The position numbers were made by a program, and so were the translations under genes. From assembly GCA_034670305.1 (NCBI GenBank), contig JAXMNT010000026.1, forward strand, positions 25,402 to 89,401: DNA of 64,000 bases, written 5' to 3'. Source of the DNA: Deltaproteobacteria bacterium (GTDB taxonomy: Bacteria > Myxococcota_A > Polyangia > Polyangiales > Houyiibacteriaceae). Positions 37,426 through 56,243 of the stretch are shown here, piece by piece (position 1 is the first letter of the stretch; each line of letters starts with the position of its first letter). The notes beneath the pieces are model-generated. The model had not been told where the DNA came from, made no database searches, and saw nothing but the letters and a program-made list of their open reading frames with translations.

Positions 37426-38121
37426 ATGGTGGACTCGAAGCAACGCGACACTCGGCGAACCTTCATCCGGCGGGCCGCCGCAGGCACCGCGATCGCGGCG
37501 CTGGGTGGTTGGTACATGCTGGACGACGAGCTCACCGCAGAGGCGCGTGCGCAGGTCCGGCCGGATGGACGGCCGCGGCTGCCGCCTGGGCAGCGGGTCC
37601 TCTCCGAGCTGCGGGAGATGGGCGGCCAGATGGGTTCGGCGTCGCTCTCGGAGCTGCGGATCCGGGTGCATGGAGAAGTCGAGGCGCCGCTCCTCCTCAC
37701 GTTCCGGGAGCTGCTCGAGTTGCCGCAGACCGAGCGCGCGCTCGACGTGCACTGTGTGACCGGCTGGAGCGTGCTGGGAGCCCGGTTCGAAGGGGTCACC
37801 CTGACGGAGTTGGCCCGGCGGGTCCGGGTGAAGTCCTCGGCGCGGCATGTCGTGTTTGAAGCCGCGCATGGCTACACCGCCAATGTGCCGCTCCGAGAGG
37901 CGATGCGGGACGAGGTGATGGTCGCGCACCGAATCGGCGGCCGGCGCTTGCCCCGCGCGAACGGTGGGCCGGTGCGCGGGGTGGTGCCGAACCTGTACTT
38001 CTGGAAGAGCGCGAAGTGGCTGACCGGCATCCGGTTCTCGCGCCGCGATGTCCCCGGCTACTGGGAGGTGCGCGGCTACCACAACGTCGGCGACCCGTGG
38101 CGCGAGCAACGCTACGGATGA
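37426..38121 (+). CDS. Sulfite-oxidase-family molybdopterin oxidoreductase (YedY/MsrP-like) with a Tat signal
   Basis: It has RRTFIRRAAAGTAIAALGG (a twin-Arg signal) and VHCVTGWS (the YedY signature). Confidence 0.7.
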   Translation: MVDSKQRDTRRTFIRRAAAGTAIAALGGWYMLDDELTAEARAQVRPDGRPRLPPGQRVLSELREMGGQMGSASLSELRIRVHGEVEAPLLLTFRELLELPQTERALDVHCVTGWSVLGARFEGVTLTELARRVRVKSSARHVVFEAAHGYTANVPLREAMRDEVMVAHRIGGRRLPRANGGPVRGVVPNLYFWKSAKWLTGIRFSRRDVPGYWEVRGYHNVGDPWREQRYG

Positions 38122-38786
38122 CGGGGCGGGACAACCTGGACTCCGCCGCTCGGCAAGACGGCCCCGAAGACGGTTCGCTTCCCCCAGACGGCGCAACCGA
38201 TGAAGGCAGCTCCGAGAAGTCGGCCGCGAAGAAACGGGGCGCCGCGCTTCGCCGAACCTTGCGCGCGCTCCACCGGGACGCGGGCTACCTCGTCGTCGGC
38301 CTGACGTTCGTCTACGCGCTCAGCGGCATCGCCGTGAACCACGTCGAGGACTGGGACCCGAGCTTCGCGCATTTCGAACACACCCATCAGGTCACCCTGC
38401 CAGCGGGCGCGGACCAGGACGCGACCGTGGCCGCAGTGCTCAGCGCCCTCGAGATCGAGGAGATCCCGGTCGAGGTCTACGAAGCATCAGAGACCGAGCT
38501 CGACGTGGTCCTCGACCGCCGGACGTTGCACGTGGATCTGCGGAGCGGCGAAGTCTTCGAAGAAGGCCAAGAGCCCCGCTTCCTGCTGAGGGCCGCCAAC
38601 TGGCTGCACCTCAACCGGGGCAAAGCCGCGTGGACCTACGTCGCGGACGGCTTCGCGGTCCTGCTCTTGTTTCTGGCGACCAGCGGCCTGTTCATGCTGC
38701 CTGGCCGCAAAGGCCTGCTCGGTCGGGGCGGCATACTGGTGCTCATCGGTGCAGCGGTCCCCGTCCTCTACGTCCTCCTGAGCTGA
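38118..38786 (+). CDS. PepSY-associated-TM-like two-helix membrane protein
   Basis: LRALHRDAGYLVVGLTFVYALSGIAVNH matches the PepSY_TM HRW-like motif, and there is a second C-terminal TM helix. Its start overlaps the stop of the YedY-like gene. Confidence 0.45.
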   Translation: MTGRDNLDSAARQDGPEDGSLPPDGATDEGSSEKSAAKKRGAALRRTLRALHRDAGYLVVGLTFVYALSGIAVNHVEDWDPSFAHFEHTHQVTLPAGADQDATVAAVLSALEIEEIPVEVYEASETELDVVLDRRTLHVDLRSGEVFEEGQEPRFLLRAANWLHLNRGKAAWTYVADGFAVLLLFLATSGLFMLPGRKGLLGRGGILVLIGAAVPVLYVLLS

Positions 38787-40426: not shown

Positions 40427-41215
40427 ATGTCAGACATGCCGACGCCGTCCAAGGACCGACTTCCGCTCGTCGAACAATGCACCCAACGTCTTCGGCGGGC
40501 GGTGCTCGACGGGACCTACCCGCCCGAGACCCGGCTCCCTTCCGAACGCACCCTGTCCGAACAGCTCGGGCTCAACCGGGTCACCGTCCGCAGCGCGATG
40601 ACCCACCTCGTCGCGGGCGGACTGCTCGAGGCGCGGGTGGGAAGCGGCTACTGGGTGAAGGACTTCCGGCGCTTCGGCGGGCTCGATCTGCTGCCGGTGC
40701 TCGTCGAGTTCGAGGACCCCGTGCCGCTCGCCCGCGACCTGCTTGCCATCCGCCGCCAGCTCGCCGCGATGGTGCTCGAACAAGTGCGGGCGGTGGCCGA
40801 CGAAGCCGGCTCCGAGTTCGAGAAGGCGGACCGGCTCTACTACCTCGAGGACGCGATCGCGCACCTGGCCACCTTGGTCGACGAAGGCGCAACGCGGGCC
40901 GAGCTGGCGGACGCCGACCTCGAGGTCATCGCGCGCCTGGTCGAGATCACGGGCAGCCGCGCACTGCAGCTCTGCTTCAACCCACTCGCCCGCGTGGTCC
41001 ACGACTTCCCCGCCCTGCGGGATGCGCTCTACGCGGAGCCGTCCAAGAACCTCGTGGCGTACAAGGCGTTGCTTCGCTGGATTCAGGGCGCGACCGACGC
41101 CGACCCGGCCGCGCTGTTGAAGGCGATGGCGGCTCGGGACCGGGCGACAGTGACCGCACTCGAGCGCTCCCAGAAACGCATGTCCGGGCGCACGTCCCCG
41201 AAGAGGCCCTCATGA
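40427..41215 (+). CDS. GntR-family transcriptional regulator (FCD/FadR-like C-terminal domain)
   Basis: It has a winged HTH (RLPSERTLSEQLGLNRVTVRSAM) and an all-helical C-terminal domain. Confidence 0.7.
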   Translation: MSDMPTPSKDRLPLVEQCTQRLRRAVLDGTYPPETRLPSERTLSEQLGLNRVTVRSAMTHLVAGGLLEARVGSGYWVKDFRRFGGLDLLPVLVEFEDPVPLARDLLAIRRQLAAMVLEQVRAVADEAGSEFEKADRLYYLEDAIAHLATLVDEGATRAELADADLEVIARLVEITGSRALQLCFNPLARVVHDFPALRDALYAEPSKNLVAYKALLRWIQGATDADPAALLKAMAARDRATVTALERSQKRMSGRTSPKRPS

Positions 41216-41964
41216 GTACCGCATCGCCAGCACACCCTCAGCCACACCCAGCCGCTCGCCCCACGCCATCTTCGCGGAGAACCCCCATTCCGGCGCACGC
41301 GCTCGGGCTGCTGTTCCCCCGAGCCATCGCGGAGAACCTGGAGCGACTTCGCCAGTCGGGCATGCTCGCACCCGACGAGGTCCCGAACCTCTGGCAGGTC
41401 CAGCTCGGGGTCGCCCGCATGTGGCACCGCGTCTTCTTCCGGCCTGAGAGCATCGGCACCTGCACCGACTTCGAACCCCGCCGCACCTGGCGGGCGCGCT
41501 TGCTCGAGAAGCGCGCGCTGCGGTTCCCGTTCTTGCTGCGCGAGCGCGCGGTGCATCCGCTCGACTTCTCGGGACTCGCCTCGTCGCCCTCGCGCATCGT
41601 CCGGCACCTGCTCGGCGCGCACCACGACGGGGTGCAGTTCGCGTACGACCTCGAGATCCTGTCGATGTCGCCCGAACACCTCGACGCGCTCGAAACCGAA
41701 GCGCGGCAGGTGGTCGACGGAAGCCATCCGCGGGGCGAGTGGCTCAGAGATCTGGTCGTCTACGAGCGCTACCACGAGCACCTGCTCGCGGCGGTCGAGC
41801 AGTTCCGGGCCGACGCCCTCGAGGTGCCCGAACACCAGCAGGACGACCCCGACATCCTCTTCCGCGCCTACATGCGCTGGTGTGCGCGCCAGCCCGCGAC
41901 CCCGGCCGCCACCTGGCGCGCCTTCCGCGCGGGCACCTTCCGCCTGCCTGGGGGCGCGACCTGA
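41212..41964 (+). CDS. Hypothetical protein co-transcribed with the GntR regulator
   Basis: It overlaps the regulator through ATGA. No family is recognised. Confidence 0.4.
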   Translation: MSTASPAHPQPHPAARPTPSSRRTPIPAHALGLLFPRAIAENLERLRQSGMLAPDEVPNLWQVQLGVARMWHRVFFRPESIGTCTDFEPRRTWRARLLEKRALRFPFLLRERAVHPLDFSGLASSPSRIVRHLLGAHHDGVQFAYDLEILSMSPEHLDALETEARQVVDGSHPRGEWLRDLVVYERYHEHLLAAVEQFRADALEVPEHQQDDPDILFRAYMRWCARQPATPAATWRAFRAGTFRLPGGAT

Positions 41965-41986: not shown

Positions 41987-43757
41987 TCAGGGCGCCAGCA
42001 CGCGGACGGCGCGGTGCAGTCGGTCGTCTCGCCCGTCGCTGCCGAAGTAGACCATCTCTACCTGCGCGTCGGAGGCCATGGCCGCCGCGTGCCGCACCCC
42101 GAGTTGCTCCGAGCCGCGCCCCTCGGGCGCCAAGATCTCGTCGTCGACCAGCCGCCAGTGAAGGAACTCCGCCGACGAGAAGAGCGCGATCTGTTCGCGC
42201 GTCCCGTGCCGCACCGTCACCGCGAGTTGGTAGGCGGCCTGGACCACCTGCAGCGACGGGGCGCTCACTCCGTCGCCCCGAAGTAGACCGGTCGGAACGG
42301 TGCTCCACCGCGTCCAGAGCAGTCCGTTCTCCGACGCGTACGCGACCAGATCCGCGCCATCCATGGCGACCATCGCGAACCGGTAGGCGTGACTCTCCGC
42401 CGCGATGGACACCACGCTGACCTCACGAAGCGAGGCTCCGTCCGCCAAGCTGATGCCCATCGGTGCGATGAAACGCGCGCCGTCGAAGGTCCATCGGTGG
42501 ATCCCCGCCGGGCTCCGGGCGTAGAGCATGAGCGTGCCGTCCGAGAGCACCAAGGAGGGTTCGACAAGCGGTCCCCCGACGTCCGAGGTGTCCACGGCGT
42601 CTTCGCCTCGCAGGACGAACCCACTCTCGGTGCCGCCCCGTTGGGCGAGCCGGATCCCGGTGCTGGTCTGGAGCGCGAGCTGCAGCGTGCCTGAGGCATC
42701 CAGCGCGAGGGAGGGCTGTTGGCCGCCCTCGAGTTCCACCGCGGTGGGGTTCGAGGGCAAGCGGAACTCGACCAGCGTTCGGTCCCTCCACGCGCGCGGC
42801 ATGTCACATCCCGAGGCCGTGATCTGGAGTTCGGAGAGGCGGGCCCCAACCGGTCCCGACCCGTCCGGGTTCTCGCTTCGTCCCCACACCGCGAGGTGCG
42901 CCGACGCGGGCGGAATGAAGGGCACCTCCTCCGACACTTCGGTCCCCAGGGTCACGGTCGCCGTTCCCGTGGGCGCCACGGTCAACGACCACGGTCCAGC
43001 GGGGTTGGTCAGGTCCGCGAGCGGGAACCTTCGGGCCACCCGGCCGTGCACGAGCAGAAGCACTTCGCGCGGGCTCAGCTCGAGGCCCACGAGCGCGTCG
43101 ACGTGCGCGGTCGCACCGCTCGGCCGCGTCGTCGCCAGGCCCACCGCCGCACTCTCGAGACAGTCCGTGCACTCCGGCCGGCCGAACGAGACGTCGAAGT
43201 GCAACTGCTCGCGGCGCAGGTCGACCTCTCGACCGACGAGCCCGCTGTCGAACTCCGCGTCTCCGCCAAGCGCGAGTCCGCCGTGAAAGAACGGGGCCGG
43301 GGAGCCGAACTCGGTCCAGGCCCCAAGGGGCGCGCAGCTCGTGACCGGCGCCGCGCACCCGTCGAACGCGCCGGGCCCGAACGCGACCGGCGTGTCTTGC
43401 AGCACGCAGCAGTTGGTGGTGCCGACGCAGCAGCTCACGAGGTTCACGCAGCCGGTGTCGGCGCAATCGACCGCGCCCGAACCGTCGTTGTCGTCCCCGT
43501 CGTAACAGGTGTTGGTGGCGGTCGACGCATCGTCGCCTTCGCCGCCCGACGCGAAGAGCTCGCCCCGGACCGAATCCATCGGCGGAAGCCCTGGTTCGAG
43601 GTTCGGAAGGCCCGCGTCTTCAAAGAGGCCAGGTGCGTCGCCGCGCGGGCCGACGTCGCTCGCGGCCGCATCCGGCGCGGTGCCTGCGTCGACCGCGCCG
43701 ATGACCGGCTCTCCGCACGAGATCACCGAGAGCACGAGCAGTGTCGCGAGCTTCATC
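41987..43757 (-). CDS. Paralog 1: lipoprotein with a CxDGxDNDGxGxxDCxDxxC...CC module and a large beta-rich C-terminal domain
   Basis: It has a lipobox (SVISCG), an acidic linker, and TCYDGDDNDGSGAVDCADTGC...SCC, followed by about 450 aa. Confidence 0.6.
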
Positions 43758-43781
43758 ACGCCCCACCTCTGACCCTGGCGA

Positions 43782-45617
43782 TCATGTGCCACCTGCAAAA
43801 CGAGCGTCGCTCGGCGCGGTGCGGCGCACTTCGGACGCCACCGAACGGTCTCCGCGCAGACCGACGAAGAAGAGCCGCAGCGCATCGCCCTGCGACACGG
43901 CGCTCGCCCCCGACGCGCCGAGCGGATGCGCGTCTCGTTCTGCCAGGACCTCGTCGTGGACTGCCCGCCACGCGACGAGCTCATCCGACGCCCACAGCGC
44001 GATGCGCCGGTGGGTGCCGCGTGCGAACGTCGTGTAGAGGCGGTAGCTCCCCGCGTGCACGGTGATCGACGCGTGGATCGCGCCGGCGGTCTGGGCCCGC
44101 AGGTTCAGCCCAGTCTCTTCCCAGCCGCCTCGACCCGGGCGCTGGACGAACACGCGCACTCCGTTGTCCACCGCGACGAAGATCTCGTGGCCGCCGTGGT
44201 GCAGCAGTTGAAACGAACGCCAGGGGACCGCCGGGAGTGTGCGCTCGACCGGGGCGGTCCATCCAAGGTCCGTTCGGAACTGATCGATGAACACCGTGCG
44301 CACGGGCGCGCCGTCCATGTCTTCTTCGACGGCCGCCACCAGCCGCAGCCGCCCCGTCGCGTCGACCACGAGCGTCACCCCACCCCACCGGTCCGCCCAC
44401 TCCGGCAGCGTCGGCGGCGACACCGTCTCGAAACCAGAATCGCCTTCGCGCGCGACGCGGATCTCGTTGTCGCTGACCCGGTACGCGAGCCAAACCGCGT
44501 CCTGCCAGAAGGCGGCGCTCAGCACCTCGGGCTCGTCGACGATGGGTGTCGACCCATCGAAGAGAGGCAGGTTCGAGGTGGGCGACCAGGTGGTCGGCAT
44601 GTCGCACGCCGAGAGTCCGACCTGCAGACTGGAGAGACGCACGCGGCTCTCCCCGTCCGGCAATCCGCCGCTCGGGTTCTCCGTGTGGCCCCAGACGACG
44701 AGCGTGGCCGACGGGGCGACCGGAAACTGGTGCGAGAGCATGCGGCCGTCGTCGCTGGTCGCGCGGGCTTGACCGTCGGGCGTCAACTCGAGGGTCCACG
44801 CTTCAGCACTCGACGTCGAAAGCACATCGGTCTGAGCGACGACCCGACCCTCCACGAGCAGGTGCATGCGGCCGCGGGCGGGCGAGAGCTGAAGGGCGAC
44901 GAGCGGTTCGACATGCTGGGTGTTGCTGAGATCTCCATGGGTGGTGAATCCAACCGCGACGCTCTCGAGACAGCGCGCCTCACCGGTGCAGGTGCCGCGT
45001 TCGAAGCCCGCGCGGATCTCGGCGCGGTGGATGCGCAGGTCGAGCGGTGCGGCCAGGAGCACGCCGCTGTCGTATTCCGCGTCGCCACCCGGCGCGAGAC
45101 CGCCCGCGTCGTGGAACGGACCCGGGCTGCCGAACGCGCGCGGCGCCAAACCCGCAATGCAGTCCATGAGCTCGGCTTCGCCACAGGAGAACTCCTCGAG
45201 CGGCACGGGCGCTTCGCGGACCGCGGCGCAACCGACCTCGCCGATGCAACAGCTGGCAAGCGAGGAACACTGCGGGTCCGCGCAGTCGGTCAGTCCGGCG
45301 CCCGCGGTTTCCGGTGCGTCGTTGTCGACCGCGTCGTAGCAGGTCGCGCGGAGCGCCGCGGCGTCGTCACCGTCCATGCCCGGCGGCACCGGCGCTTCGG
45401 CAGAGAATGCTCCCGCGCGGCTGGGATCGGCCGGCACACCACCGAAGTCGGTCTCGAACAGACCGCCCGCATCGGCAAACGACGCATCTCGGTCGCCGCC
45501 CACCCCTCCATCCGGACCGGCGTCCTCGTCCTCGACCCCGGTCAGGTCGAAGGCGGCGCATCCCATGGCCAGGGCGAGCGACCAGGCAAGACAGGAAAGT
45601 GGGAGGGAGCGCGACAC
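43782..45617 (-). CDS. Paralog 2 of the same lipoprotein family
   Basis: It has a lipobox (LALAMGC), then CYDAVDNDAPETAGAGLTDCADPQC...SCC, with the same architecture. Confidence 0.6.
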   Translation of the reverse strand: MSRSLPLSCLAWSLALAMGCAAFDLTGVEDEDAGPDGGVGGDRDASFADAGGLFETDFGGVPADPSRAGAFSAEAPVPPGMDGDDAAALRATCYDAVDNDAPETAGAGLTDCADPQCSSLASCCIGEVGCAAVREAPVPLEEFSCGEAELMDCIAGLAPRAFGSPGPFHDAGGLAPGGDAEYDSGVLLAAPLDLRIHRAEIRAGFERGTCTGEARCLESVAVGFTTHGDLSNTQHVEPLVALQLSPARGRMHLLVEGRVVAQTDVLSTSSAEAWTLELTPDGQARATSDDGRMLSHQFPVAPSATLVVWGHTENPSGGLPDGESRVRLSSLQVGLSACDMPTTWSPTSNLPLFDGSTPIVDEPEVLSAAFWQDAVWLAYRVSDNEIRVAREGDSGFETVSPPTLPEWADRWGGVTLVVDATGRLRLVAAVEEDMDGAPVRTVFIDQFRTDLGWTAPVERTLPAVPWRSFQLLHHGGHEIFVAVDNGVRVFVQRPGRGGWEETGLNLRAQTAGAIHASITVHAGSYRLYTTFARGTHRRIALWASDELVAWRAVHDEVLAERDAHPLGASGASAVSQGDALRLFFVGLRGDRSVASEVRRTAPSDARFAGGT

Positions 45618-45801
45618 GGTGGAAACAGAGTAACTTCAATGAGCGTGCCAAGGCTCGAAGTCGTCTTGGGCCTTCGATTGTCCCTCAAAAGCGGGCCGAA
45701 GCGGTCCTCTGCGCCCCGCTATGACAGATCCGCCCGATCGGGCCCGAAGATCTGGCGCGGCCTGACACAGCCCAAGCGGGCCAAGAAGCGGTCGCCAGCG
45801 T

Positions 45802-47538
45802 TCAGATGATGCCGGCTTCGGTCGCGGCGACCCGGAAGGTCGTACCGACCCGCGCGCCCATGCCGTCGTCGCCCACGTAGAGCAGCCGCAGCCCCTCCGG
45901 GGTCGAGGTGGAGGCCGGCGCGGTCACACCCAGCGCATCGAAGCCCTGGCCGGAGCCGCTGAGGACTTCGCCCAGATCCCGCCAGACGACGAGCGCGTCG
46001 CTCACGAAGAGCCGGAGCGACGTCCGGGTGCCGCGGCGGTACGCCACGTGAAGGTGCCACGCGCCGTTGTGCGCCGAGAGCGCGAGTCCGCCCACGCTCT
46101 CGCCATCGCGGGATGTGGGCACGTGGAGGTCCGCACCGGGAAGCACGCTGCCGCCCTCTTGGTACACGGTCCACCCCGCCGATGTCTGCGCCGCCATGAC
46201 GAACAGGCCGCCTTCGGTTCGGGCAACGACGGGTTCGAATGCGTCGCGAAGCACCACGGTCCCGACGTTCCCGAACGAGTCGCCTTCCGCGGGCATGCGC
46301 TCGATCGTGGGCGAGCCATCGGCGCGCCGCACCGTGAGGTACAAGTGCCAGTTCGTCCCATCGTGATCGAGTTCCGGATCCTCGAAGGTCTCGTCGCCGA
46401 GCGGGCGCACGGTCTCCCCGACGACCAAGGTCTCGCCCTCGATGCGGCCGAGCTGAACGACGTCGTTCTGCATCCACGCGACCCGCACTTCGCCGCCGGC
46501 CGAGTGCACGGTCGGCGTCTCTCCCTCGGCCAGGACGGAGCGCTCCGACCAAGCGGTGGGGATGTCGCAGAGAGACAGCCTCGTGGAGAGCGCCCGGACC
46601 CGCGCAGGACTCAACGACCCGGCGTCGGTGTTGCGGGCGCGTCCGTAGAGCGCAACCCGCGCAAGCCCCGTCTCTGACGGGAGAAACACTGTTTCGTAGT
46701 CGAACGTATCCGACCCGAGCACCACCGACACATCGCCGGTCGGTCGCACGATCAGTCCCACCGTGAAGTCATCGGTGCGGGGCACGTCGTGGCGCCCTTG
46801 CTCGCGGCCGCCGACGAGCAGCATCAGCCGCGACTGCGAGCCGCTGTAGACCAGCGCGACTTCTGAATCGGCGAGCACCCCCGCCCCCGTCTCGGGCAGG
46901 TTGGAGACCAAACCGAGCACGGTCGTCTCGAGACAATCGGAGCCGCATGTCTGGGGCGGCGAGATCGTCGCGCTCAGCTCCACCCGCTGGGTGGTCAGGT
47001 CGATCGGTGCACCGAAGAGCGCGCCGCCTTCCCCGAATGCGTCACCCCGCATCACCAGGCCCTCGGCCGTCGTCTCGAGACCGAGACCGAACGGCGTGGC
47101 GGTCGGTGCGCAGCTGCCGAGATCCGCGCCGCACAGGGTCAGGTCCATCGTGCCGACCGAGGTGTCGGTGCAGCAGTCGCCGTTGCCAGTGCAGCAGTAA
47201 CCGAGCGAGGCGCAACGTGCGTCCTCGCAGTCGATGATGCCGCTCCCGTCGTTGTCCTCGCCGTCGGCACAGGTCAGGACGTAGTCGTTCGCGTCGAGCC
47301 CGACGTCCGGGTCGGCTTCGCCCGCCACCCGGCTCGGGTCGGCGCGGAGCCCTTGCGGGCTGGATTCGGGCCCACCGTCGGCTCCGGCACCGACGTCTTC
47401 CGGCGCCATGCCGCCATCGAACGTTTCGCCAGCGTCGTCGACTCCGACCGGCGGGTAGGTGTCGCCCGCGTCGCCACACCCGACGAAGCACGCCGCGAAA
47501 GCGAACCAGACGAGAGGGGACGAGGTGAGGTGTGTCAT
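45802..47538 (-). CDS. Paralog 3 of the same lipoprotein family
   Basis: It has a lipobox (FVGC), then CADGEDNDGSGIIDCEDARC...YCC. Confidence 0.6.
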   Translation of the reverse strand: MTHLTSSPLVWFAFAACFVGCGDAGDTYPPVGVDDAGETFDGGMAPEDVGAGADGGPESSPQGLRADPSRVAGEADPDVGLDANDYVLTCADGEDNDGSGIIDCEDARCASLGYCCTGNGDCCTDTSVGTMDLTLCGADLGSCAPTATPFGLGLETTAEGLVMRGDAFGEGGALFGAPIDLTTQRVELSATISPPQTCGSDCLETTVLGLVSNLPETGAGVLADSEVALVYSGSQSRLMLLVGGREQGRHDVPRTDDFTVGLIVRPTGDVSVVLGSDTFDYETVFLPSETGLARVALYGRARNTDAGSLSPARVRALSTRLSLCDIPTAWSERSVLAEGETPTVHSAGGEVRVAWMQNDVVQLGRIEGETLVVGETVRPLGDETFEDPELDHDGTNWHLYLTVRRADGSPTIERMPAEGDSFGNVGTVVLRDAFEPVVARTEGGLFVMAAQTSAGWTVYQEGGSVLPGADLHVPTSRDGESVGGLALSAHNGAWHLHVAYRRGTRTSLRLFVSDALVVWRDLGEVLSGSGQGFDALGVTAPASTSTPEGLRLLYVGDDGMGARVGTTFRVAATEAGII

Positions 47539-49505
47539 AGGCTCAGCGGGTTCCAGACCTGGTCGAGCGGGAAGAGCTCGAAGCGACGACCGCTCTCACC
47601 AATAGGCACCTTTCGTGCCACGAGAAACCGCAGGTCCGCCGTGCCGGTTCGCCGCGCGACCGTGAAGGACTCGATGGAGCACCCGACACAGCCGTTGGAG
47701 AACGCAGGCATCGACGCTTCGAGGACCGGGTTCGCTGGGTAGGGTTGGAACGTCGGTGCCTGGTCGGCGCCGTCCTTCGGCTGACCAAGCGCCAGGCCGA
47801 TCGCCACTTCGCCGTCGATGAAGCCGGCGAACCAGAGCCGGAACACCGGCGCCGTCCCATCGGTCCGGTCCACGACCACCTCGGGGTTGAAGATCTCGCC
47901 TCCGAACCGGCCGAAATCGGTGCCCGGCGCAAACACCGGAAGCGACGGCTCGCCCTCCACCGGGCGGATGGTCACCAGCAGCGTGAGGTTCTGCATGCGC
48001 AGGTGGGTGTCGCCGGTGCGCGCCACGCAGGTGAAAAAGAGCCAGGCGTTCGCCGCATCGCCCGGGTTCGAGACCAGGAAGGGATCCCGGAGCGAGCGGC
48101 AGTCGGTCTCGCGCGCGACGTCGAGGACCAGCCGCTCCGGGCCGATCGGACCCACCGAAGGTTCTTCGTCCAGCTCCTGGATGTGGATCGAGTAGGCGTC
48201 GTCGTTCAAGGCCGACTTGGCGTACAGGACGTAGAGCGTGTCGGCGCCCTCGAAGAGCGAAGGATCGCGCACCTTGTCGGCCGGCGGCGCGCCGGGACAC
48301 GTGCCATCCCAGCACGACGGCGGCTGCGCGCCGAGCTGAGGCGTCTCGGACGAGTTCAGCCACTGGTCGTTCCAGCTTCCGGGCGTCTGTCGGGCATGGC
48401 CGATCGACCACCCCACCGCGGCGGTCGTCTCGATCTCGGGTTGGTCGTTGGTGGCTTCGGCGACGACTTGCCAGTTGCCGTCGACGAACAAAAGGCCCGG
48501 CGATCCGATCGCCTCGTCCGCCCACTCGTCTCCAGAGGATGGCGGAGAGAAACTGAGCGAGCTGGTCAGCACCAGTTCTTCGCCAGACGTGAGCGGGTTG
48601 TCGGTGGTGCCGAACTGGTTCGGGTTCGTGCATTGGCCACTGAGGATGTCCACGTCGCCTTGGACGTGAATCGCGTTGCCGCGTCCTTCCACGGCCACGA
48701 AGAGTCCGCCGATGTTCGCGCACGCGCCGGTCTGGGTAAGGTTGCGAAGATCGATCGGCGCCGCCTGGAAGACGCCGTCCGCCCCGATCCGCACGGTCGG
48801 AAGGAGCGCCGGTCGATCCCCATCGAACCCGGGTACGAGCGAGATCACGACCGAGTGTTCGCCGATGCCGAGGCTGCCCGAGGACGATTCGTCGCCGGCC
48901 TGGGTCACGGAGAAGTCGCCGCCTGCGCTGACCGTCACCGACAGCTCGTCGGCCAACCGCGGCCGTCCGCCCTGGGTCCGGACGGGGCTGAGTGTGACCG
49001 CCGCGTATTCGCAGTCTCCGTCCGTGCATGTCTCGCCCGTGACGTCGAAGCGCACGCTCACGCGGCCCCCGCCCGCGAAGGGGACGCAGTCCTCGAACAC
49101 GACCCCGTTCGGATCCGCGAAGTCCACCAGTGCACCGCCCATGACCGTCGGCTCCATGCGAGTGGGCGCGCTCCGGTTCCAGTCGCTCAGATCGCCGAAG
49201 CTCGACTGATCGAGCACGGACACCCCAACGTCCGCGTTGCAGCACGACGCGCTCTCGGCGCAGTCGAAGTCCGCGCAGTCGATGAGGCCGTCGAGGTCGT
49301 CGTCCGCCATGTTGTCGCAGACCTCCATCGGCGGCACGAACGCGTCCCCGGTGTCGACCCCGGCGTCTTGTCCCCCGTCGGCTGCGTCGATCGGCGGCGC
49401 GTCCATGCCGCCGGCGTCCTCGACGATCCGGTCGCGGTCGGGCGCATTGAGGAGCGAACATCCGGAGACCGCCGCGAGGGCACAGAAGCAACAGAGCAAG
49501 CGCAT
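47535..49505 (-). CDS. Paralog 4 of the same lipoprotein family (contains an RDP motif)
   Basis: It has a lipobox (AVSGC), then CDNMADDDLDGLIDCADFDC...SCC. Its stop overlaps the start of paralog 3, and its start overlaps the stop of the upstream PEGA gene. Confidence 0.6.
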   Translation of the reverse strand: MRLLCCFCALAAVSGCSLLNAPDRDRIVEDAGGMDAPPIDAADGGQDAGVDTGDAFVPPMEVCDNMADDDLDGLIDCADFDCAESASCCNADVGVSVLDQSSFGDLSDWNRSAPTRMEPTVMGGALVDFADPNGVVFEDCVPFAGGGRVSVRFDVTGETCTDGDCEYAAVTLSPVRTQGGRPRLADELSVTVSAGGDFSVTQAGDESSSGSLGIGEHSVVISLVPGFDGDRPALLPTVRIGADGVFQAAPIDLRNLTQTGACANIGGLFVAVEGRGNAIHVQGDVDILSGQCTNPNQFGTTDNPLTSGEELVLTSSLSFSPPSSGDEWADEAIGSPGLLFVDGNWQVVAEATNDQPEIETTAAVGWSIGHARQTPGSWNDQWLNSSETPQLGAQPPSCWDGTCPGAPPADKVRDPSLFEGADTLYVLYAKSALNDDAYSIHIQELDEEPSVGPIGPERLVLDVARETDCRSLRDPFLVSNPGDAANAWLFFTCVARTGDTHLRMQNLTLLVTIRPVEGEPSLPVFAPGTDFGRFGGEIFNPEVVVDRTDGTAPVFRLWFAGFIDGEVAIGLALGQPKDGADQAPTFQPYPANPVLEASMPAFSNGCVGCSIESFTVARRTGTADLRFLVARKVPIGESGRRFELFPLDQVWNPLSL

Positions 49506-50893
49506 CAGAACGTCCCCCCGAGCGTGGCCACGCCGCCGTTGCGGGTCGGCGCGAGCCCGAACTGCACGTCGGCCTCCGACGGTTCGTCCGGTGCATCCGA
49601 GTTCACCAGGTAGAGGATGAGCGTCGTGATCGCGAGCGCAGCAGCCGCTCCGAGGATGCCGTCTGCGAGGTGGTTCGCCCGGTCGACGTCGTCGGCCATC
49701 GAGGTGCACTGAGACACCGTGCCGCCCGGACACGCGTCTTCGAAGTCGTCCTTCAAGCGCAGGGCCCGGACCATGAGTCCCACCGTCACGGCGGCGGCGG
49801 CGGCGGTCACACCGAGCGCCACGTGCGGCAGCGCCCCGAGCCGGGTGCCTTGTCCGGCAGCACCGAGCCGAACCGCGACGTTCGTCGTCGCACCAGCGCG
49901 CGTTTCGACCGGCGCGACGTAGCGGGCATGGCCCGGCGCGCGGACGTCCACCTCGTGCGGCCCGGGATCGACCTCGATGTCGACCTCGCCCTGACCCACC
50001 AGCCGTCCGTCGACCCGAACTTCAGCCCCCTCGATGCTCGCCACGCGCAGCCGTGCCTGGCCGAGCGGCGCAAGCGTGATCGACACCCGACCGTCTTCGC
50101 CCGGCGCCAGCACGACGTGGCGCACCGCGGTCGGCCGCCCGCTGGCTTCGAGCCGAACCTCATGTTCACCGGGCGACACCTGCTGCGGCCCTGGCTGAAT
50201 CGGCGCGCCGTCGAGGCTGAGCGTGCCGGTCCCCGAAGACGCCGGCGGCACCTCCACGATCAACGTCACCGGCTCGGGGACCAAGCGCCCCTGCACCTCG
50301 GTGGCTTCGCCGAGCACGAGGTTGGTTTCGACTCGGAAGTCCGCGTGGTGGGGTGCCCGGAGGTAGACGACGTGTGCACCGGGCGGCAGCGCGACCTCGA
50401 GCGGGGTCGTGCCGCGGGGCGCGAGGTCCAGCCGGTCCACGAACACCTGGGCGCCCGCCGGCGCACTCGCCACACGCAGCACCGCCACGTGCTGCCGAAG
50501 TTCCGCGATGCGGGCTTCTCCATCGGTGCGCTCTTGGGCGCTCAGCCCGTCGATCGCCAAGTACTCCCGGAAGTACCCGAAGGCTTCGGCCGGTCGCTCG
50601 AGGCGGGTCAGTACGAGCCCCGCGTTGAAGATCGCATTCCGGCTTCGAACGATCCGCACCGTCGACACGAACGCCTCGAGGGCGTCTTCGAGCAACGCGC
50701 GCTGACGGGCACCGCGGGCGCGGTCGGCGCGCTCCAGCAAGCGGTTGCCTCGGTCGAAGAACACCCGCGCTTCGGCGTTGGGATCGTTGACCTGCGCAGA
50801 CGCGACGCTCGGCGGCAGCACGGAGGTGCCCGACAGCAACGGCATGCCGATCGCGATCGAGAAGAGAAGAGGGCGTAAGGAGAAGCGGATCAC
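49505..50893 (-). CDS. Secreted TPR-like plus tandem PEGA-domain protein with a C-terminal TM helix
   Basis: It has a signal peptide and several PEGA motifs (for example LRVASAPAGAQVFVD...PGAHVVYLRA), and is hydrophobic near the C-terminus. Confidence 0.6.
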   Translation of the reverse strand: MIRFSLRPLLFSIAIGMPLLSGTSVLPPSVASAQVNDPNAEARVFFDRGNRLLERADRARGARQRALLEDALEAFVSTVRIVRSRNAIFNAGLVLTRLERPAEAFGYFREYLAIDGLSAQERTDGEARIAELRQHVAVLRVASAPAGAQVFVDRLDLAPRGTTPLEVALPPGAHVVYLRAPHHADFRVETNLVLGEATEVQGRLVPEPVTLIVEVPPASSGTGTLSLDGAPIQPGPQQVSPGEHEVRLEASGRPTAVRHVVLAPGEDGRVSITLAPLGQARLRVASIEGAEVRVDGRLVGQGEVDIEVDPGPHEVDVRAPGHARYVAPVETRAGATTNVAVRLGAAGQGTRLGALPHVALGVTAAAAAVTVGLMVRALRLKDDFEDACPGGTVSQCTSMADDVDRANHLADGILGAAAALAITTLILYLVNSDAPDEPSEADVQFGLAPTRNGGVATLGGTF

Positions 50894-50939
50894 AGAAGTC
50901 GTTCGAAAGCGGAAGAGAGACCGGTGCGTCGGACCGCGG

Positions 50940-52355
50940 TCACAACATGGTGCGGTGTTCGGTCATCGACATGGGAGCAGAACCCACCCCGGCACGTCGT
51001 TGCAAGCGCCCTTCGATCACGGCGCCTTCGGCGGCGACCCCTTCGAAGCCGGCGGCGCGGTACCCACGGAGCCGGTACGTCACTTCCAGCGACTCCCCTT
51101 CGGGGAACGACAGCTCGAGCGGGGTGACGCCGAGTCGCTCGTCGCCGCGCAGGACCGTCGCGCCTGGAGGGTCGGACACGAAACGAACGACCTGCGGGAC
51201 CGGTGTCAACGCACCCTCCGGCAGCCGGTCGGTCGTTGGCGCCGCCTGCATCTCGGTCGGCATCTCGGTGGGCTGCACTTTGGTCGGCGGTTCGGTTTCG
51301 GGCCCGGTTTCCAAGCGCGTGGTCGGCTCGACCGCATCGTCCCCCATCTGCGAGAGGCCGAGGCCGACGAGGAGCAGCAAGACCGCACCGGCCAGACCGA
51401 TCCAGGGCAGGCGGGAGGGCCCCGCAACCGGTTCGGGCGTGGCGACAGCAGCCGGCTCGGGCAGAGACGCCCGTGCGGACGGCGGCACACTCATGAGCCG
51501 GCCAGGATCCGCGTCGATGTCGGGCGCGGCAGCCGAGAGTGCTGCGGACAACGCCGCCATGCTCTGTGGCCGGTCGGCGGGGTCCTTGGCGAGGGCTTTC
51601 AAGATCGCCGCTTCGACGGCGGCCGGCATCGACACGTACTCGCTCGGCGGTTTGGGCTCCTCGTTCCCGTGTTTCCAGAGCAACTGGAAGTAGTTGCCGC
51701 CTTCGAAGGGCGGCCGGGCGGTCAACATCTCGTAGAGCATGACGCCGAGTGCGTAGATGTCGGCGCGGTGGTCGACGTCGGCTTCGCCGCGCGCCTGTTC
51801 CGGCGACATGTACAGCGGCGTGCCGACGAGCTGCCCGGTGCGCGTCATGCGGACCTGTTCGGCTTCGGCGGTCTTCACCTTGCTGATCCCGAAGTCGAGG
51901 ATCTTCACGAAGTCCGAGTCCCGTTTGCGGCAGATGAAGACGTTCTCGGGTTTCAGATCCCGGTGCACGATCCCGCCGTCGTGGGCAGCCTGCAGCGCCT
52001 CGCACATCTGGTGGGCGATCGGCAGCGCCCGGGACAGCGCCATGGGACCCGGTTCGATCACGTCCGCGAGGCTCTTGCCCTCGAGCATCTCCATGACGAG
52101 GAACACACGGCCGTCGTCGGTCGCGTCGAAGCTCACCACGTCTACGATGTTGTCGTGGTCGATGCTGCTGGCCGCCCGCGCTTCCTGTTTGAGGCGGTCG
52201 ATCGCGCTCTTGTTGGCGGCGACTTTGTCCGAGAGCACCTTCACCGCGAAGGGTTTGTCGAGGTGGATGTGGACCGCCATGTAGACGGTGCCCATGCCGC
52301 CTTCCCCGATCCGGCTGTCGACCTTGTACAGGCCGCTGAGCACCCGGCCGATCAT
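50940..52355 (-). CDS. Ser/Thr protein kinase with a TM segment and a C-terminal PEGA domain
   Basis: It has the full Hanks motifs (GEGGMGTVY, AVKVL, HRDLKPEN, DFGISK, GTPLYMSPE), then a TM helix, then PEGA (VRFVSDPPGATV). The N-terminus may extend upstream through a non-ATG start. Confidence 0.75.
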   Translation of the reverse strand: MIGRVLSGLYKVDSRIGEGGMGTVYMAVHIHLDKPFAVKVLSDKVAANKSAIDRLKQEARAASSIDHDNIVDVVSFDATDDGRVFLVMEMLEGKSLADVIEPGPMALSRALPIAHQMCEALQAAHDGGIVHRDLKPENVFICRKRDSDFVKILDFGISKVKTAEAEQVRMTRTGQLVGTPLYMSPEQARGEADVDHRADIYALGVMLYEMLTARPPFEGGNYFQLLWKHGNEEPKPPSEYVSMPAAVEAAILKALAKDPADRPQSMAALSAALSAAAPDIDADPGRLMSVPPSARASLPEPAAVATPEPVAGPSRLPWIGLAGAVLLLLVGLGLSQMGDDAVEPTTRLETGPETEPPTKVQPTEMPTEMQAAPTTDRLPEGALTPVPQVVRFVSDPPGATVLRGDERLGVTPLELSFPEGESLEVTYRLRGYRAAGFEGVAAEGAVIEGRLQRRAGVGSAPMSMTEHRTML

Positions 52356-52747
52356 CGGATCGGGCCCCTCGTCCGCGTCGTCGTCGTCGTAGACGATCGT
52401 CGGGCCCGTCTTGCCGGGGGGTGCCTCGTGAGGGCCGGAGAGGTCGTCGTCGGAGCTGGCGCCAACCGTCTTGGCGAGCGGATCGGTGCTGCTGAGCGCA
52501 GGCGTCTCCGCCCCGCCTGATTGAGTGTCTTTCGTCGGGTCGTCGACCGCCGGCTCTCGCTCCGCCTCCAGGGGATCCCTCCGTCGGCGCAGCCTACCAC
52601 GGGGTTTGCAGCCACGCCGCGGTTCAGGACTCGGACGTTTGTCGAGAGATGCGGACCAGTTGTCGGGGCCTTGCCCCTGCAGAAGGACGCCAGAGCAACT
52701 GGTCCAACGTCGCGCGGGTGGACCACGGGGTGTAGAAAGCAACCTGC

Positions 52748-53431
52748 GTGCCCCGCCTCTCCGACCAAGCCGAAGCCCTCCTCGACGCGGTCGGCGAAGA
52801 TGGCCAGTCCACCACACTCAAGCCGCGCCGCGGACACGTCCGATTGCTCCCCGGCAACCTCGGCAACGCCTTGTGGACCTCGCGCCCCTGGCTCCCCTAC
52901 GTCTGGTTCGCCCCCGTCGTCTCAGCGTGCCTCGAAGTCGCACCCCCAGCCGCCGAAGTCGGGGTGACCGTGCCAATCCCGGCCATGCTCGCCATCCCCG
53001 CCCTGTGGCTGAGCGGCGCCCTCGCCTGGATGTTGCTCGAGTACCTCATGCACCGCTTCTTCTTCCACCTCCGTGGAGACGGCCGACTCGTGCGCGGTTT
53101 CCGCTTCCTCGTCCACGAACACCACCACGCCCACCCCTGGGACGAACGCCGCATCGCCGCGACTTGGTGGCAGATGTCGCTCGCCATGCTCTTGCTCTTC
53201 GGCATCGAACGCGCGTTGGCGCCCGTCCTGTGGCCCCACGTCTTTCTCGGCAGCCTGGTCGCCTACCTCCTCTACGAAGCGATCCACCACCGCATCCACC
53301 ACGACCAAGAAGGCGGCCGGTTGCTGCGGGCCATCCGCGCCCACCACCTGAGGCACCACCACGGGCCAGACGGTGCGAAGCGCGGCTACGGGATCAGCAG
53401 CCCCGTCTTCGACTGGCTCTTCCGAACATGA
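52748..53431 (+). CDS. Fatty acid hydroxylase superfamily membrane protein (four His boxes)
   Basis: The His boxes are HRFFFH, HEHHHAHP, HHRIHHD and HHLRHHH. Confidence 0.6.
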   Translation: MPRLSDQAEALLDAVGEDGQSTTLKPRRGHVRLLPGNLGNALWTSRPWLPYVWFAPVVSACLEVAPPAAEVGVTVPIPAMLAIPALWLSGALAWMLLEYLMHRFFFHLRGDGRLVRGFRFLVHEHHHAHPWDERRIAATWWQMSLAMLLLFGIERALAPVLWPHVFLGSLVAYLLYEAIHHRIHHDQEGGRLLRAIRAHHLRHHHGPDGAKRGYGISSPVFDWLFRT

Positions 53432-55034: not shown

Positions 55035-56243
55035 TCATCCCACCAGCGCGTCGAGCTTCGCTTCGATCGTCTTCGCGCTCATCACGCCTTTGTAGACGTA
55101 GAGCGCCGCGCTCTTGGACTCGGCGAGCAGCTTCTCGCTGACTCGGAGCCGGGTCGATGCGGCGAAGAGCATCGGGACCGCGAGCCCTTTCTCCGCGAGT
55201 TCGACGCGTTTGAAAACCGCGTCTCGGCTCCAGTATCCCATGACTTCCAAGTACACAGTCGACTTGCCCTTGCGGAAGACCAGGTCGGGCACGCACTCGC
55301 CGACGCCGGGCAACGAGACCACCGCTTCGGCCGGCTCGCACGCCCACTTGCTCGTGCCCTTTTCGTGGCGGGCGGCCATCTTGGCGCGAAGCTTCTCGAC
55401 TTCGTCGGGCAACGCGACCGGCGCGCCCTCCCCGTCCTTCTCGCGTCCGCCATCGGCCCGGAACCGGAGCCTCGTGCGCTGTTTGCCCCAGCGGATCTTC
55501 GCATCGAGCGACCACCGGTCGCACGCGCGGATCGCGGGCAAGACGAGCGCGAGCTGCAGCCCGTACTTCGTGACGGACTGCAGCAAGCTGAACGGTCCGT
55601 CGATCGTGATGCGGTAGCCCTTGGCTTCGGGGAGCGGCTCGATGCGGTAGAGCAGCCGCCGGAACTTCATGGTGCGGAAGAGCGCGCGGTAGCCGGCGGC
55701 GTCTTGGCTCTCGACCTCGACCGTCACAGACTCCGCCCGCAGCAGCACCGCTTGCACCTGCGAACGTTCCCAGTGCACCGCGACCTCCGCACCGCTGATG
55801 TCGTCGAACGCGAGCAGACGGTGGGCGCTCTTGAGGTCCGCGAAGAGCAGCCGCTCCACCTCCTCGGCGGTGACCGAGTGGCTCGAAGCGATCTCGGCCA
55901 ACAGCGCATCGCGGTCGAACGCGTCGCTGCGGCGCGCGTCGGCCGCGCGCGTGAAGACCTCTTGCCGGAGCGCGACGGGATCGAGCTTCGTCTGCACTTC
56001 GAAGTCGCAGCGGTCGAGCACCAACTTCCGCAGGCCATCGGCGAGTTTGACGTCGCGGTTGTCCACCTTCACGTGGCCCATCGCTTCGAGCACTTCGCTG
56101 CGGCTCTCGCCCACCGAGGCCCGGGCGATGGTCACGTACCGCGCCGCGATCTCCGCTGCCCGGCTGCGGATCTTCGTGTCCATCTTGCGGAGTTTGAGTT
56201 CCCCGTCCCGCTTGGTGGCCAGCACGTGGTCACTTGTAAGCAA
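55035..56243 (-). CDS. Bax1-like (DUF790) nuclease partner of XPB
   Basis: It is about 400 aa, lies directly 3' of the XPB-like helicase, and has a C-terminal restriction-endonuclease-like segment (VPDLVFRKGKSTVYLEVMGYW). The start is uncertain (TTG at 56243, GTG at 56225 or ATG at 56183). Confidence 0.5.
   Translation of the reverse strand: MLTSDHVLATKRDGELKLRKMDTKIRSRAAEIAARYVTIARASVGESRSEVLEAMGHVKVDNRDVKLADGLRKLVLDRCDFEVQTKLDPVALRQEVFTRAADARRSDAFDRDALLAEIASSHSVTAEEVERLLFADLKSAHRLLAFDDISGAEVAVHWERSQVQAVLLRAESVTVEVESQDAAGYRALFRTMKFRRLLYRIEPLPEAKGYRITIDGPFSLLQSVTKYGLQLALVLPAIRACDRWSLDAKIRWGKQRTRLRFRADGGREKDGEGAPVALPDEVEKLRAKMAARHEKGTSKWACEPAEAVVSLPGVGECVPDLVFRKGKSTVYLEVMGYWSRDAVFKRVELAEKGLAVPMLFAASTRLRVSEKLLAESKSAALYVYKGVMSAKTIEAKLDALVG

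Follow-up and report, generated by a model that had tools for sequence, protein, structure and literature searches.

The six genes on the minus strand between positions 41987 and 52355 appear to form one conserved, so far undescribed cell-envelope module, because about 40 further loci repeat this gene order; at the sequence level, their linkage is firm. The genes encode a Hanks-type Ser/Thr kinase, a TPR/PEGA membrane protein and four lipoproteins, of which A is A-type and B, C and D are BCD-type. ORF calls across the window, meaning the entire 64 kb stretch of DNA that was analysed, delimit the co-directional block as follows.

52748-53431, plus strand: divergent gene, bound of the block on the kinase side
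50940..52355, minus strand: kinase gene, Hanks-type Ser/Thr, 471 aa from the ATG at 52355
49505..50893, minus strand: PEGA protein gene, TPR-like membrane protein with three PEGA domains, 462 aa, GTG start
47535..49505, minus strand: paralog A, A-type lipoprotein, 656 aa
45802..47538, minus strand: paralog B, BCD-type lipoprotein, 578 aa
43782..45617, minus strand: paralog C, BCD-type lipoprotein, 611 aa, GTG start
41987..43756, minus strand: paralog D, BCD-type lipoprotein, 589 aa
41212-41964, plus strand: convergent gene, bound of the block on the paralog D side

Conservation of the gene order

The tight and overlapping junctions described in the first-pass annotation were recovered by direct reading of the sequence. 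The stop codon of the PEGA protein gene overlaps the start of paralog A in a TGATG at 49505, and paralogs A and B overlap in an ATGA at 47535-47538; both overlaps suggest translational coupling. The intergenic gaps measure 46 bp between the kinase and PEGA protein genes, 184 bp between B and C, and 25 bp between C and D, and the kinase ORF is open as far as 52817; its true start may lie upstream. Predicted folding of the 184-bp spacer does not exceed that of its shuffled versions (z -0.26), and searches for tRNAs and tandem repeats found none. Consensus scans for promoters and terminators were uninformative. Absent from the cluster are a response regulator, an FHA protein, anything else that would be an obvious substrate of the kinase, transporters and further CAZyme genes; nor is it linked to genes for an outer-membrane beta-barrel, a secretin or a motor.

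The order of kinase, PEGA protein, A-type and one to three BCD-type genes is found in 10 assembled loci, always on one strand (L002, L003, L009, L010, L011, L012, L013, L014, L015 and L016), and in about 28 metagenome loci (L017-L046). The flank is long enough to hold the two upstream genes in about 19 loci and a downstream gene in about 19, and the expected gene is never missing. Most related loci carry a single BCD-type gene only, and the flanking genes differ or are unrelated between loci. The loci are environmental and high in GC (62-74%), and those bearing an organism label are given as Myxococcota, Sandaracinus or Sandaracinaceae. The first-pass annotation had made its proposal of a joint system depend on conserved linkage of the paralogs to the kinase and PEGA genes; this linkage is kept in every related locus with enough flank. 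A fortuitous adjacency, in which a lineage-specific tandem duplication happened beside an unrelated kinase, is refuted by this synteny, as the same order stands between different flanks in about 38 other loci and start and stop codons overlap.

The kinase and its TPR/PEGA neighbour

The kinase consists of a cytoplasmic catalytic domain, one transmembrane helix and a periplasmic PEGA-like domain. The neighbouring PEGA protein resides in the inner membrane; its PEGA domains, one to three in number, face the periplasm together with a TPR-like region. Their features are located as follows.

51546..52328, minus strand: kinase catalytic domain, cytoplasmic (PF00069, residues 164-424 of the 625-aa ORF)
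51339..51416, minus strand: single transmembrane helix of the kinase (residues 314-339, Kyte-Doolittle window mean 2.25)
51000..51206, minus strand: PEGA-like domain of the kinase, extracytoplasmic (Pfam E 0.022 and orthologue-profile hhalign)
50489..50782, minus strand: TPR-like helical region of the PEGA protein (residues 38-135, conserved in the orthologue alignment)
49859..50488, minus strand: three PEGA domains (residues 136-345, Pfam)
49598..49831, minus strand: C-terminal two-helix membrane hairpin (residues 355-432, inter-helix loop of roughly 30 aa)

The transmembrane Hanks kinase recognised earlier is borne out by a Pfam PF00069 (Pkinase) match (E 4.9e-49) whose 167.5 bits lie well above the cut-off of 31.7, by the catalytic motifs FAVKVL, HRDLKPEN, DFGISK and YMSPEQ in its translation, and by the single transmembrane helix, which is found in seven of eight orthologues. 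The PEGA assignment of its ectodomain has support from profile comparison and falls short in Pfam: the Pfam PEGA model reaches 15.1 bits, under its cut-off of 20.8 (E 0.022), whereas hhalign of a profile of eight orthologous kinase C-termini against the first PEGA domain of the neighbour (PEGA1) gives 96.2% probability and E 2.7e-9. Weak or faint PEGA matches also occur in several kinase orthologues. Orthologues of the kinase are present in all related loci at 55-76% identity, compared with about 30% to another nearby kinase.

Some bacterial Ser/Thr kinases are built as receptors to which the sensor domain is fused, among them PknB, which carries PASTA domains, and Mycobacterium tuberculosis PknD, which carries an NHL propeller. 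The cluster kinase shares with them a cytoplasmic Hanks domain, one transmembrane helix and an extracytoplasmic domain, and the PknB_PASTA model matches its kinase domain with 298 bits, below the 450-bit cut-off. Unlike them, it has just one PEGA-like domain outside the membrane, and the propellers of the cluster sit on separate lipoproteins. A literature search on PEGA together with kinases or Myxococcus found nothing relevant.

In the PEGA protein, the Pfam PEGA model (PF08308) matches three stretches with 89.3 bits against 20.8 (E 1.5e-25). The number of PEGA domains ranges from one to three among orthologues, and PEGA1 is always there; together with the TPR-like region, it forms the most conserved part of the orthologue alignment. 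The TPR assignment is not significant with Pfam (E 0.26), and the orthologue profile matches consensus TPR proteins at E 1.7e-4. Both hydrophobic segments of the C-terminal hairpin are kept in the orthologues, whose genes lie directly 3' of the kinase gene in all related loci. The protein had been annotated as secreted, with TPR and multiple PEGA domains; the three PEGA domains stand, but it is not simply secreted because of the conserved C-terminal two-helix membrane hairpin.

Architecture of the four lipoproteins

Each lipoprotein has the same build: a Cys predicted to carry the lipid anchor, an acidic tether that is flexible, a disulfide module of the Ca type, a beta-sandwich and a propeller with five blades that belongs to the glycosidase/phosphorylase superfamily. 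The mapped domains are listed below.

49239..49319, minus strand: Cys module of A (C63-C89; NF033662 E 1.6e-6)
47212-47271, minus strand: Cys module of B
45267-45341, minus strand: Cys module of C, with a 5-residue insertion
43448-43507, minus strand: Cys module of D
48606..49148, minus strand: predicted beta-sandwich of A (roughly residues 120-300, from strands that DSSP assigns in the AF2 model)
47550..48524, minus strand: five-bladed propeller of A (about residues 328-652)
about 42809-43339, minus strand: beta-sandwich of D
about 41990-42769, minus strand: propeller of D

The four proteins had been described as paralogous lipoproteins, and their paralogy, far above chance, is confirmed by sequence comparison. 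B, C and D match one another in BLASTP at 1e-31 to 2e-55. A matches them by BLASTP through the Cys module only (about 1e-4 to 3e-5), and is joined to them by hhalign of the A-type against the BCD-type profile (98.9% probability, E 1.9e-17, 523 columns). By signal peptide and lipobox they classify as lipoproteins, with lipidation and membrane destination predicted: the translations read VSGC in A, FVGC in B, AMGC in C and VISC in D. All 91 BCD-type sequences examined have the lipobox Cys, and its conservation among 22 A-type sequences is 90% or higher. Many Cys residues are conserved. Together with the kinase transmembrane helix and the hairpin of the PEGA protein, these Cys residues support a predicted extracytoplasmic location of the module. 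The ASGCDMP(R/T)AW motif, earlier ascribed to every paralog, is present in B, C and D as S-x-C-D-[MI]-P-x-x-W, while the equivalent site in A reads C-x-N-P-x-x-F.

The suggestion of an expanding tandem family is not borne out. The A-type forms a distinct, old clade with one copy per locus, always as the first lipoprotein gene. B, C and D are evidently old paralogs rather than a recent amplification, because positional orthologues of each occur in other genomes (for C, L016_p3, L002_p2 and L003_p2; for D, L016_p4, L002_p3 and L003_p3). B is the window copy closest to the BCD-type family consensus, and it is the best match of the lone BCD-type gene in almost all minimal loci. C is the most degenerate copy and lacks the family-consensus residue at positions 399, 516, 520, 550 and 574. 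An exhaustive search placed the size of the lipoprotein family at 263 clusters at 50% identity (E <= 1e-30); word-index searches had missed most of it, and the exhaustive search was required. In agreement with the earlier failure to name a family for the whole protein, Pfam returned no family for the four paralogs or for ten A-type members (E <= 10), with one weak MopE match only.

The 64 kb window contains four Cys modules and no more, one in each paralog. The NCBIfam model NF033662 matches the paralogs with 21.5-28.7 bits (E 1.4e-4 to 8e-7) at one repeat per protein, below its cut-off of 41, which was curated to demand several tandem repeats. As judged from these matches, the module is homologous to NF033662, and the single-copy, sub-threshold paralogs are not members of that repeat-protein family. 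The A-type profile finds the C-rich domain of teneurin-4 in the PDB (7PLP, E 1.6e-5), and the BCD-type profile matches the same entry at E 0.0034; the pattern C-x-D-x-x-D-[ND]-D-x-D-G-x-x-D-C-x-D-x-x-C aligns residue for residue with the Cys module. In teneurin-4, these acidic residues bind three Ca ions with T3-like and LDL-A-like coordination, and the reference pattern comprises eight acidic Ca ligands and six Cys paired 1-3, 2-5 and 4-6 (PMC9058538). The first three Cys and most of the acidic ligands align, while the C-terminal Cys spacing differs by CC doublets, and some of the Ca ligands are changed in B, C and D, as in DGSG for DGDG. The NF033662 and teneurin matches support the assignment as a Ca-type disulfide module, predicted to bind Ca, in line with the LDL-receptor-A-like module first suspected. 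They also link the NCBIfam "acidic double-disulfide" module to a structurally characterised Ca-binding domain.

The C-terminal domains are supported as five-bladed propellers of the GH43/GH62/GH130/GH32 type. Foldseek matches the AF2 model of D to GH62 (E 4.5e-9; pLDDT 70 for D and 69.6 for A), and a 91-sequence BCD-type profile matches GH62, GH32 and GH130 chains at E 1.4e-8 (GH62) to 1e-5; these matches uphold the glycosidase-like beta-propeller that the first reading had guessed. A further neighbour is the F. plautii GalNAc deacetylase 6n1b. Unlike these enzymes, the paralogs are lipoproteins with a Ca-type Cys module, have no match to a GH family HMM (Pfam, with the four paralogs searched to E <= 1 and ten A-type members to E <= 10), and carry the beta-sandwich N-terminal to the propeller; that of A has no significant family match. 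A 22-sequence A-type profile likewise finds no glycosidase in the PDB, only teneurin, and no EC motif or WMNDPNG-like nucleophile motif of GH32/GH68 (clan GH-J) occurs in any paralog, although A has RDP-like motifs. The family, which has no Pfam match, represents a new branch of this propeller superfamily with two functionally distinct subfamilies.

The conserved residues of the A propeller include R413-[DE]-P415, L472-R-D-P475, P541-E542, R556-x-W558 and N592-P593. In the AF2 model, R413, [DE]414, P415, L472-R-D-P475, P541-E542, R556 and Q649 are located where the innermost strands of blades 2-4 begin, or close by, and the invariant motifs R-[DE]-P, LRDP and P-E place three acidic positions on three consecutive blades. 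The triad of clan GH-F (GH43, GH62) comprises an Asp base, an Asp pKa modulator and a Glu acid on blades 1, 3 and 4. An RDPSLF motif had been credited to a single paralog (numbered 4), as a hint of catalysis. A does have this RDP, but its Asp is D or E among A orthologues, a second motif, SLRDP (residues 471-475), is far better conserved, and on the equivalent blade B keeps EDPEL and D keeps EPSL, so that only C lacks an acid there. The BCD-type retains [DE]-P-E-L (82% acidic), R-R-G-T-R-W and other Arg/Asp positions, and few polar residues are conserved among its members. When aligned to GH62 by HMMER, the family pairs its DPEL Asp with the Asp of IDQT and a weakly conserved Glu with FEAP; neither of these acids is left in C, and one or both remain in B and D. 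This register differs in the GH32 and GH130 alignments, and mapping of a catalytic triad by sequence consequently failed; single A blades match several blades of the BCD propeller about equally in hhalign. A circular permutation between A and the BCD-type, considered for a one-blade offset in hhalign, was dropped because MAFFT aligns them in register and the blade matches are ambiguous.

Proposed function and alternative readings

We tentatively favour, at slightly less than an even chance, a module that senses or processes an envelope ligand, probably a glycan, and is wired to the Ser/Thr kinase. Outside the cytoplasm, the propeller lipoproteins would be the subunits that recognise the ligand, which is most likely a glycan or a derivative of a sugar. 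The A-type, in which the polar and acidic residues of the pocket are strictly conserved, may bind this ligand or convert it, and the BCD-type proteins would be degenerate, probably non-catalytic partners. The TPR/PEGA protein and the kinase PEGA ectodomain would read the occupancy or assembly state of the lipoproteins, and this reading would alter cytoplasmic Ser/Thr phosphorylation. Which ligand is recognised, whether it is converted and which way the signal runs between lipoproteins and kinase are matters of inference here, and the propeller could equally serve as a protein-protein interaction domain. Catalysis and sugar binding by the A-type are unproven because its acids lie on three consecutive blades, unlike the 1-3-4 pattern of GH43, GH62 and GH32; the earlier division into one catalytic and three binding paralogs accordingly remains unproven, as these acids could not be aligned with a glycosidase triad and no glycosidase HMM matches.

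In an active-enzyme reading, at least the A-type lipoproteins are glycoside hydrolases, phosphorylases or deacetylases that remodel or degrade an envelope, exopolysaccharide or prey glycan, and the role of the kinase and PEGA protein is limited to regulating these enzymes or providing a scaffold for them. We consider it unlikely: no member is matched by a glycosidase HMM (E <= 10) or, through the A-type profile, by a PDB glycosidase, the inconsistent blade registers to GH62, GH32 and GH130 yield no triad, and the BCD-type, above all C, lacks most acidic positions. The genes are invariably tied to a kinase instead of to sugar uptake or catabolism, with no transporter or other CAZyme gene beside them. 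The stable paralog sets, fixed order and positional orthologues, which suggest non-redundant subunits, are also what a Ca-stabilised trans-envelope scaffold or adhesion complex of kinase-controlled assembly would show, with propellers, PEGA and TPR domains as protein-protein interaction modules. TPR and PEGA are common interaction or surface-layer domains, the BCD-type conserves few polar residues, and the Ca-binding C-rich module of teneurin stabilises a compact multi-domain assembly (PMC9058538). The dense cluster of invariant charged residues at the blade starts of the A-type is, however, typical of a small-ligand pocket, and the cluster has no linked gene for a beta-barrel of the outer membrane, a secretin or a motor, which makes such a scaffold quite improbable. 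Far more remote still is an anti-phage system built around a PD-T4-6-like Ser/Thr kinase. The kinase domain does match the PADLOC PD-T4-6 models (E 3.6e-88) and also the mad6 and PglW-type kinase models, but only as a generic kinase domain; the other five proteins have no PADLOC match, all partners are extracytoplasmic, no mobile-element features were seen, and the orthologous order across diverged genomes points to vertical inheritance.

Within the favoured reading of a ligand-sensing module, a more specific form is possible, though doubtful: a four-component envelope sensor with a heteromeric pseudo-glycosidase receptor (one A-type and one to three BCD-type proteins), teneurin-type Ca tethers, a TPR/PEGA adaptor and a PEGA-ectodomain kinase. 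If true, it would be a Ser/Thr-kinase counterpart of lipoprotein-assisted two-component sensors and would give the teneurin C-rich module a bacterial structural context. MtrAB-LpqB of Actinobacteria is a "three-component" system in which a sensor kinase works with an accessory lipoprotein (PMC2732212). The cluster resembles it in outline, by analogy only, and more loosely QseEG, NlpE-Cpx and RcsF, in that a lipoprotein gene is conserved beside a membrane sensor-kinase gene. It differs from MtrAB-LpqB in having a Hanks Ser/Thr kinase in place of a histidine kinase, no response regulator, two to four lipoproteins of two subfamilies and a dedicated TPR/PEGA membrane protein; the LpqB domains GerMN and Gmad1 have no Pfam match in the cluster proteins. 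The input received outside the cytoplasm is known for few bacterial Ser/Thr kinases. In this module, the kinase is tied in about 40 independent loci to defined periplasmic or outer-membrane partners with a recognisable ligand-binding fold, and the arrangement is a concrete, testable candidate for the means by which a Hanks kinase could perceive the envelope or its surroundings.

The gene block and its upstream proteins

The window has a G+C content of approximately 69%, and the six minus-strand genes at 41987–52355 represent one co-inherited envelope module. Across loci, this module combines a receptor-type Ser/Thr kinase with a TPR/PEGA membrane protein and a set of two to four propeller lipoproteins.

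Genes of the block and its boundaries
50940–52355, minus strand: kinase
49505–50893, minus strand: PEGA protein
47535–49505, minus strand: paralog A, 656 aa
45802–47538, minus strand: paralog B, 578 aa
43782–45617, minus strand: paralog C, 611 aa, GTG start
41987–43756, minus strand: paralog D, 589 aa
52748–53431, plus strand: FA_hydroxylase gene, divergent, boundary on the kinase side
41212–41964, plus strand: convergent gene, boundary on the D side

The start codon of A shares TGATG with the stop of the PEGA protein gene, and the start codon of B shares ATGA with the stop of A; the remaining gaps measure 46, 184, and 25 bp. The module genes are probably translationally coupled. The 184 bp B–C spacer (45618–45801) may harbor an internal promoter, and its predicted RNA fold is not better than that of shuffled sequence (z −0.26). 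The C ortholog is likewise preceded by a spacer in related loci, of 123 bp in L016 and 273–344 bp in L002/L003. An FA_hydroxylase (PF04116) homolog also adjoins the kinase in L009, L011, L014, L015, L043, and L046 and is absent there in the other loci, an arrangement that may be a remnant of synteny or indicate a loose functional connection with lipid modification.

The kinase possesses a full Pkinase domain (Pfam, E = 4.9e-49) with catalytic motifs intact in translation and one transmembrane helix, and its orthologs in the related loci share 55–76% identity. Its C-terminal domain gives a weak PEGA match (Pfam, E = 0.022), and a profile of eight orthologous kinase C-termini matches PEGA1, the first PEGA domain of the neighboring protein, with 96% probability (E = 2.7e-9). 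The extreme C-terminus (50940–50970) carries a short conserved tail, [IF]-K-x-x-[FML]. The kinase start is uncertain: the reading frame remains open for 154 codons 5′ of the ATG at 52355 with no further ATG (52356–52817, minus strand), and gene calls for the orthologs include 7–104 additional N-terminal residues. Starting at the alternative GTG (52817) or TTG (52742) would bring the kinase gene into overlap or direct contact with the 5′ end of the divergent FA_hydroxylase gene.

The PEGA protein was described in the first-pass annotation as a secreted TPR/PEGA protein. The signal peptide, the TPR-like region, and three PEGA domains (Pfam, E = 1.5e-25) are indeed present, but the protein is membrane-anchored rather than just secreted, because a C-terminal hairpin of two hydrophobic helices is retained in the orthologs. 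The helical region is strongly conserved, and an orthologue profile groups it with consensus TPR proteins (E = 1.7e-4), although the Pfam TPR match is not significant. The orthologs contain one to three PEGA domains, with the TPR-like region, PEGA1, and the hairpin constant. The tail past the second transmembrane helix (49505–49580) is also conserved and ends in P-x-x-G-G-x-x-x-x-x-G-x-[FL].

Architecture and conserved sites of the lipoproteins

Homology among paralogs B, C, and D, which constitute the BCD-type subfamily, is clear from BLASTP (1e-31 to 2e-55), whereas the full-length relation of A to them is detectable only at the profile level (hhalign, 98.9%, E = 1.9e-17). All four follow one layout, in which a lipobox Cys, invariant among 91 family members, precedes an acidic linker modeled at low confidence (pLDDT < 50), a single Cys module, a beta-sandwich, and a beta-rich domain at the C-terminus. 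An exhaustive HMMER search (E ≤ 1e-30) yielded 263 clusters at 50% identity, nearly all full length.

The Cys module matches the NCBIfam acidic double-disulfide repeat NF033662, with a score under the multi-repeat cut-off, and the teneurin C-rich domain (PDB 7PLP, E = 1.6e-5). In the crystal structure of the latter, three Ca ions are coordinated in thrombospondin-T3-like and LDL-A-like fashion (PMC9058538) by a pattern of acidic residues that the lipoprotein module largely shares; the LDL-A-like, Ca-binding appearance remarked on earlier was therefore a good call. By itself, the module (C-x-D-x-x-D-N-D-...-D-C-x-D-x-x-C) occurs in many unrelated metagenome proteins (L047–L096), which marks it as a mobile extracellular module of wide distribution rather than a family-specific one. 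Directly after the lipid-anchor Cys, the mature N-terminus of A-type proteins is conserved as G-C-[ST]-[LW]-[LI]-N-A-P-D-R (residues 15–24 of paralog A; 49434–49463, minus strand), sufficiently so for use as a search pattern. It has no counterpart in BCD-type proteins and may serve in sorting or docking.

The Pfam search of the paralogs returned no family match. AlphaFold2 models of A (pLDDT 69.6, pTM 0.69) and D (pLDDT 70) contain a beta-sandwich of approximately 11 strands and, C-terminal to it, five blades of four strands each, and Foldseek comparison with the PDB matched both to GH62, GH43, GH130, and GH117 propellers (E = 1e-9 to 1e-10, target TM approximately 0.6). Independently, a 91-sequence BCD-type profile matched GH62 (E = 1.4e-8), GH32 (5e-7), and GH130 (1e-5) chains by sequence. 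The C-terminal domain is a new branch of the GH62/GH43/GH130/GH32 propeller superfamily, in line with the resemblance to five-bladed propeller glycosidases suggested by the first-pass annotation.

Across 12 to 22 A-type sequences of only 29–41% identity, the conserved set comprises R413-[DE]-P415, C469-x-S-L-R-D-P475, P541-E542, R556-x-W558, N592-P593, C606/C609, and Q649. In the model, blades 2, 3, and 4 each carry one of the three acidic positions, at the N-terminal end of the first strand. The RDPSLF motif that the first-pass annotation noted in one paralog is found in A, where its acidic site varies between D and E; the conserved motif is SLRDP. BCD-type proteins conserve [DE]-P-E-L in blade 2 (82% acidic), together with R-R-G-T-R-W, S528, W534-R535, [DE]550, Y570, D574-G575, and R585. 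Paralog B fits this consensus, and paralog D largely agrees with it, carrying Glu in place of Asp. Paralog C has lost five consensus positions, and the blade-2 acid is also lost in its orthologs. The conserved residues could not be placed on the glycosidase triad, since the GH62, GH32, and GH130 sequence alignments use different blade registers; A-type proteins may be catalytic, and catalysis by C is unlikely.

Conservation of the cluster and proposed function

The order kinase, PEGA protein, A-type, and BCD-type gene on one strand was kept in every related locus inspected, both assembled (L002, L003, L009, L010, L011/L012, L013, L014, L015, and L016) and metagenomic (L017–L046), while the flanking genes vary from locus to locus. 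No expected gene was missing from the approximately 19 metagenome loci with room for both upstream genes or the approximately 19 with room downstream. These synteny data refute a chance adjacency of the kinase and lipoprotein genes. The relatives that carry a label are MAGs assigned to Myxococcota, Sandaracinus or Sandaracinaceae. A-type proteins form a single clade with one copy per locus, always the first lipoprotein gene. Since most metagenome loci have one BCD-type gene, the minimal unit consists of the kinase, the PEGA protein, A, and one BCD-type gene; L002, L003, L009, L022, and L023 have two BCD-type genes, whereas the window, L011, L013, L014, and L016 have three. In the tree, B, C, and D of the window pair with the second to fourth lipoproteins of L016 (p2, p3, p4), and C and D with p2 and p3 of L002/L003. 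By this phylogeny the paralogs are old and fixed in order, which contradicts the expanding tandem family envisaged previously and any recent amplification.

Our leading, still tentative, interpretation is that the lipoproteins recognize a ligand, most likely a glycan. The A-type protein would carry the functional pocket with BCD-type proteins as degenerate partners, and coupling to cytoplasmic phosphorylation would run through the PEGA/TPR protein and the PEGA-like ectodomain of the kinase. The sensor model of kinase and lipoproteins in MtrAB-LpqB is analogous in outline (PMC2732212). A glycan-remodelling operon centered on enzymes under kinase regulation appears rather unlikely, and a structural or adhesion complex is more doubtful still. 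Anti-phage defence is highly improbable, as the PADLOC matches are limited to the generic kinase domain. Neither the propeller fold nor the Cys module is new, and sensor kinases assisted by an accessory lipoprotein are likewise known in principle. We found no description in the literature of the lipoprotein family itself, its A-type/BCD-type split, or the obligate linkage that ties it to a TPR/PEGA membrane protein and a Hanks kinase with a PEGA-like ectodomain.

Other genes in the window

Approximately 5–8 kb from the cluster lie two plus-strand genes (34326–37387), one for an HTTM protein resembling vitamin-K-dependent gamma-carboxylase and one for an Amidohydro_1 protein. In L013 (20481–22094) and L014 (14218–17189), too, HTTM genes occur directly downstream of the cluster, which probably reflects shared synteny; any connection with the acidic, predicted Ca-binding lipoproteins would be pure speculation. 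A molybdopterin oxidoreductase (Oxidored_molyb) gene followed by one for a PepSY_TM-like membrane protein (37426–38786, plus strand) is an arrangement similar to that of MsrP/MsrQ-type periplasmic reductase pairs. Two overlapping genes (55035–57843, minus strand) encode a DUF790 protein (E = 5.9e-79) and a helicase of the XPB/ERCC3 type that contains an XPB damage-recognition domain, a combination resembling the XPB-Bax1 helicase-nuclease pairing.
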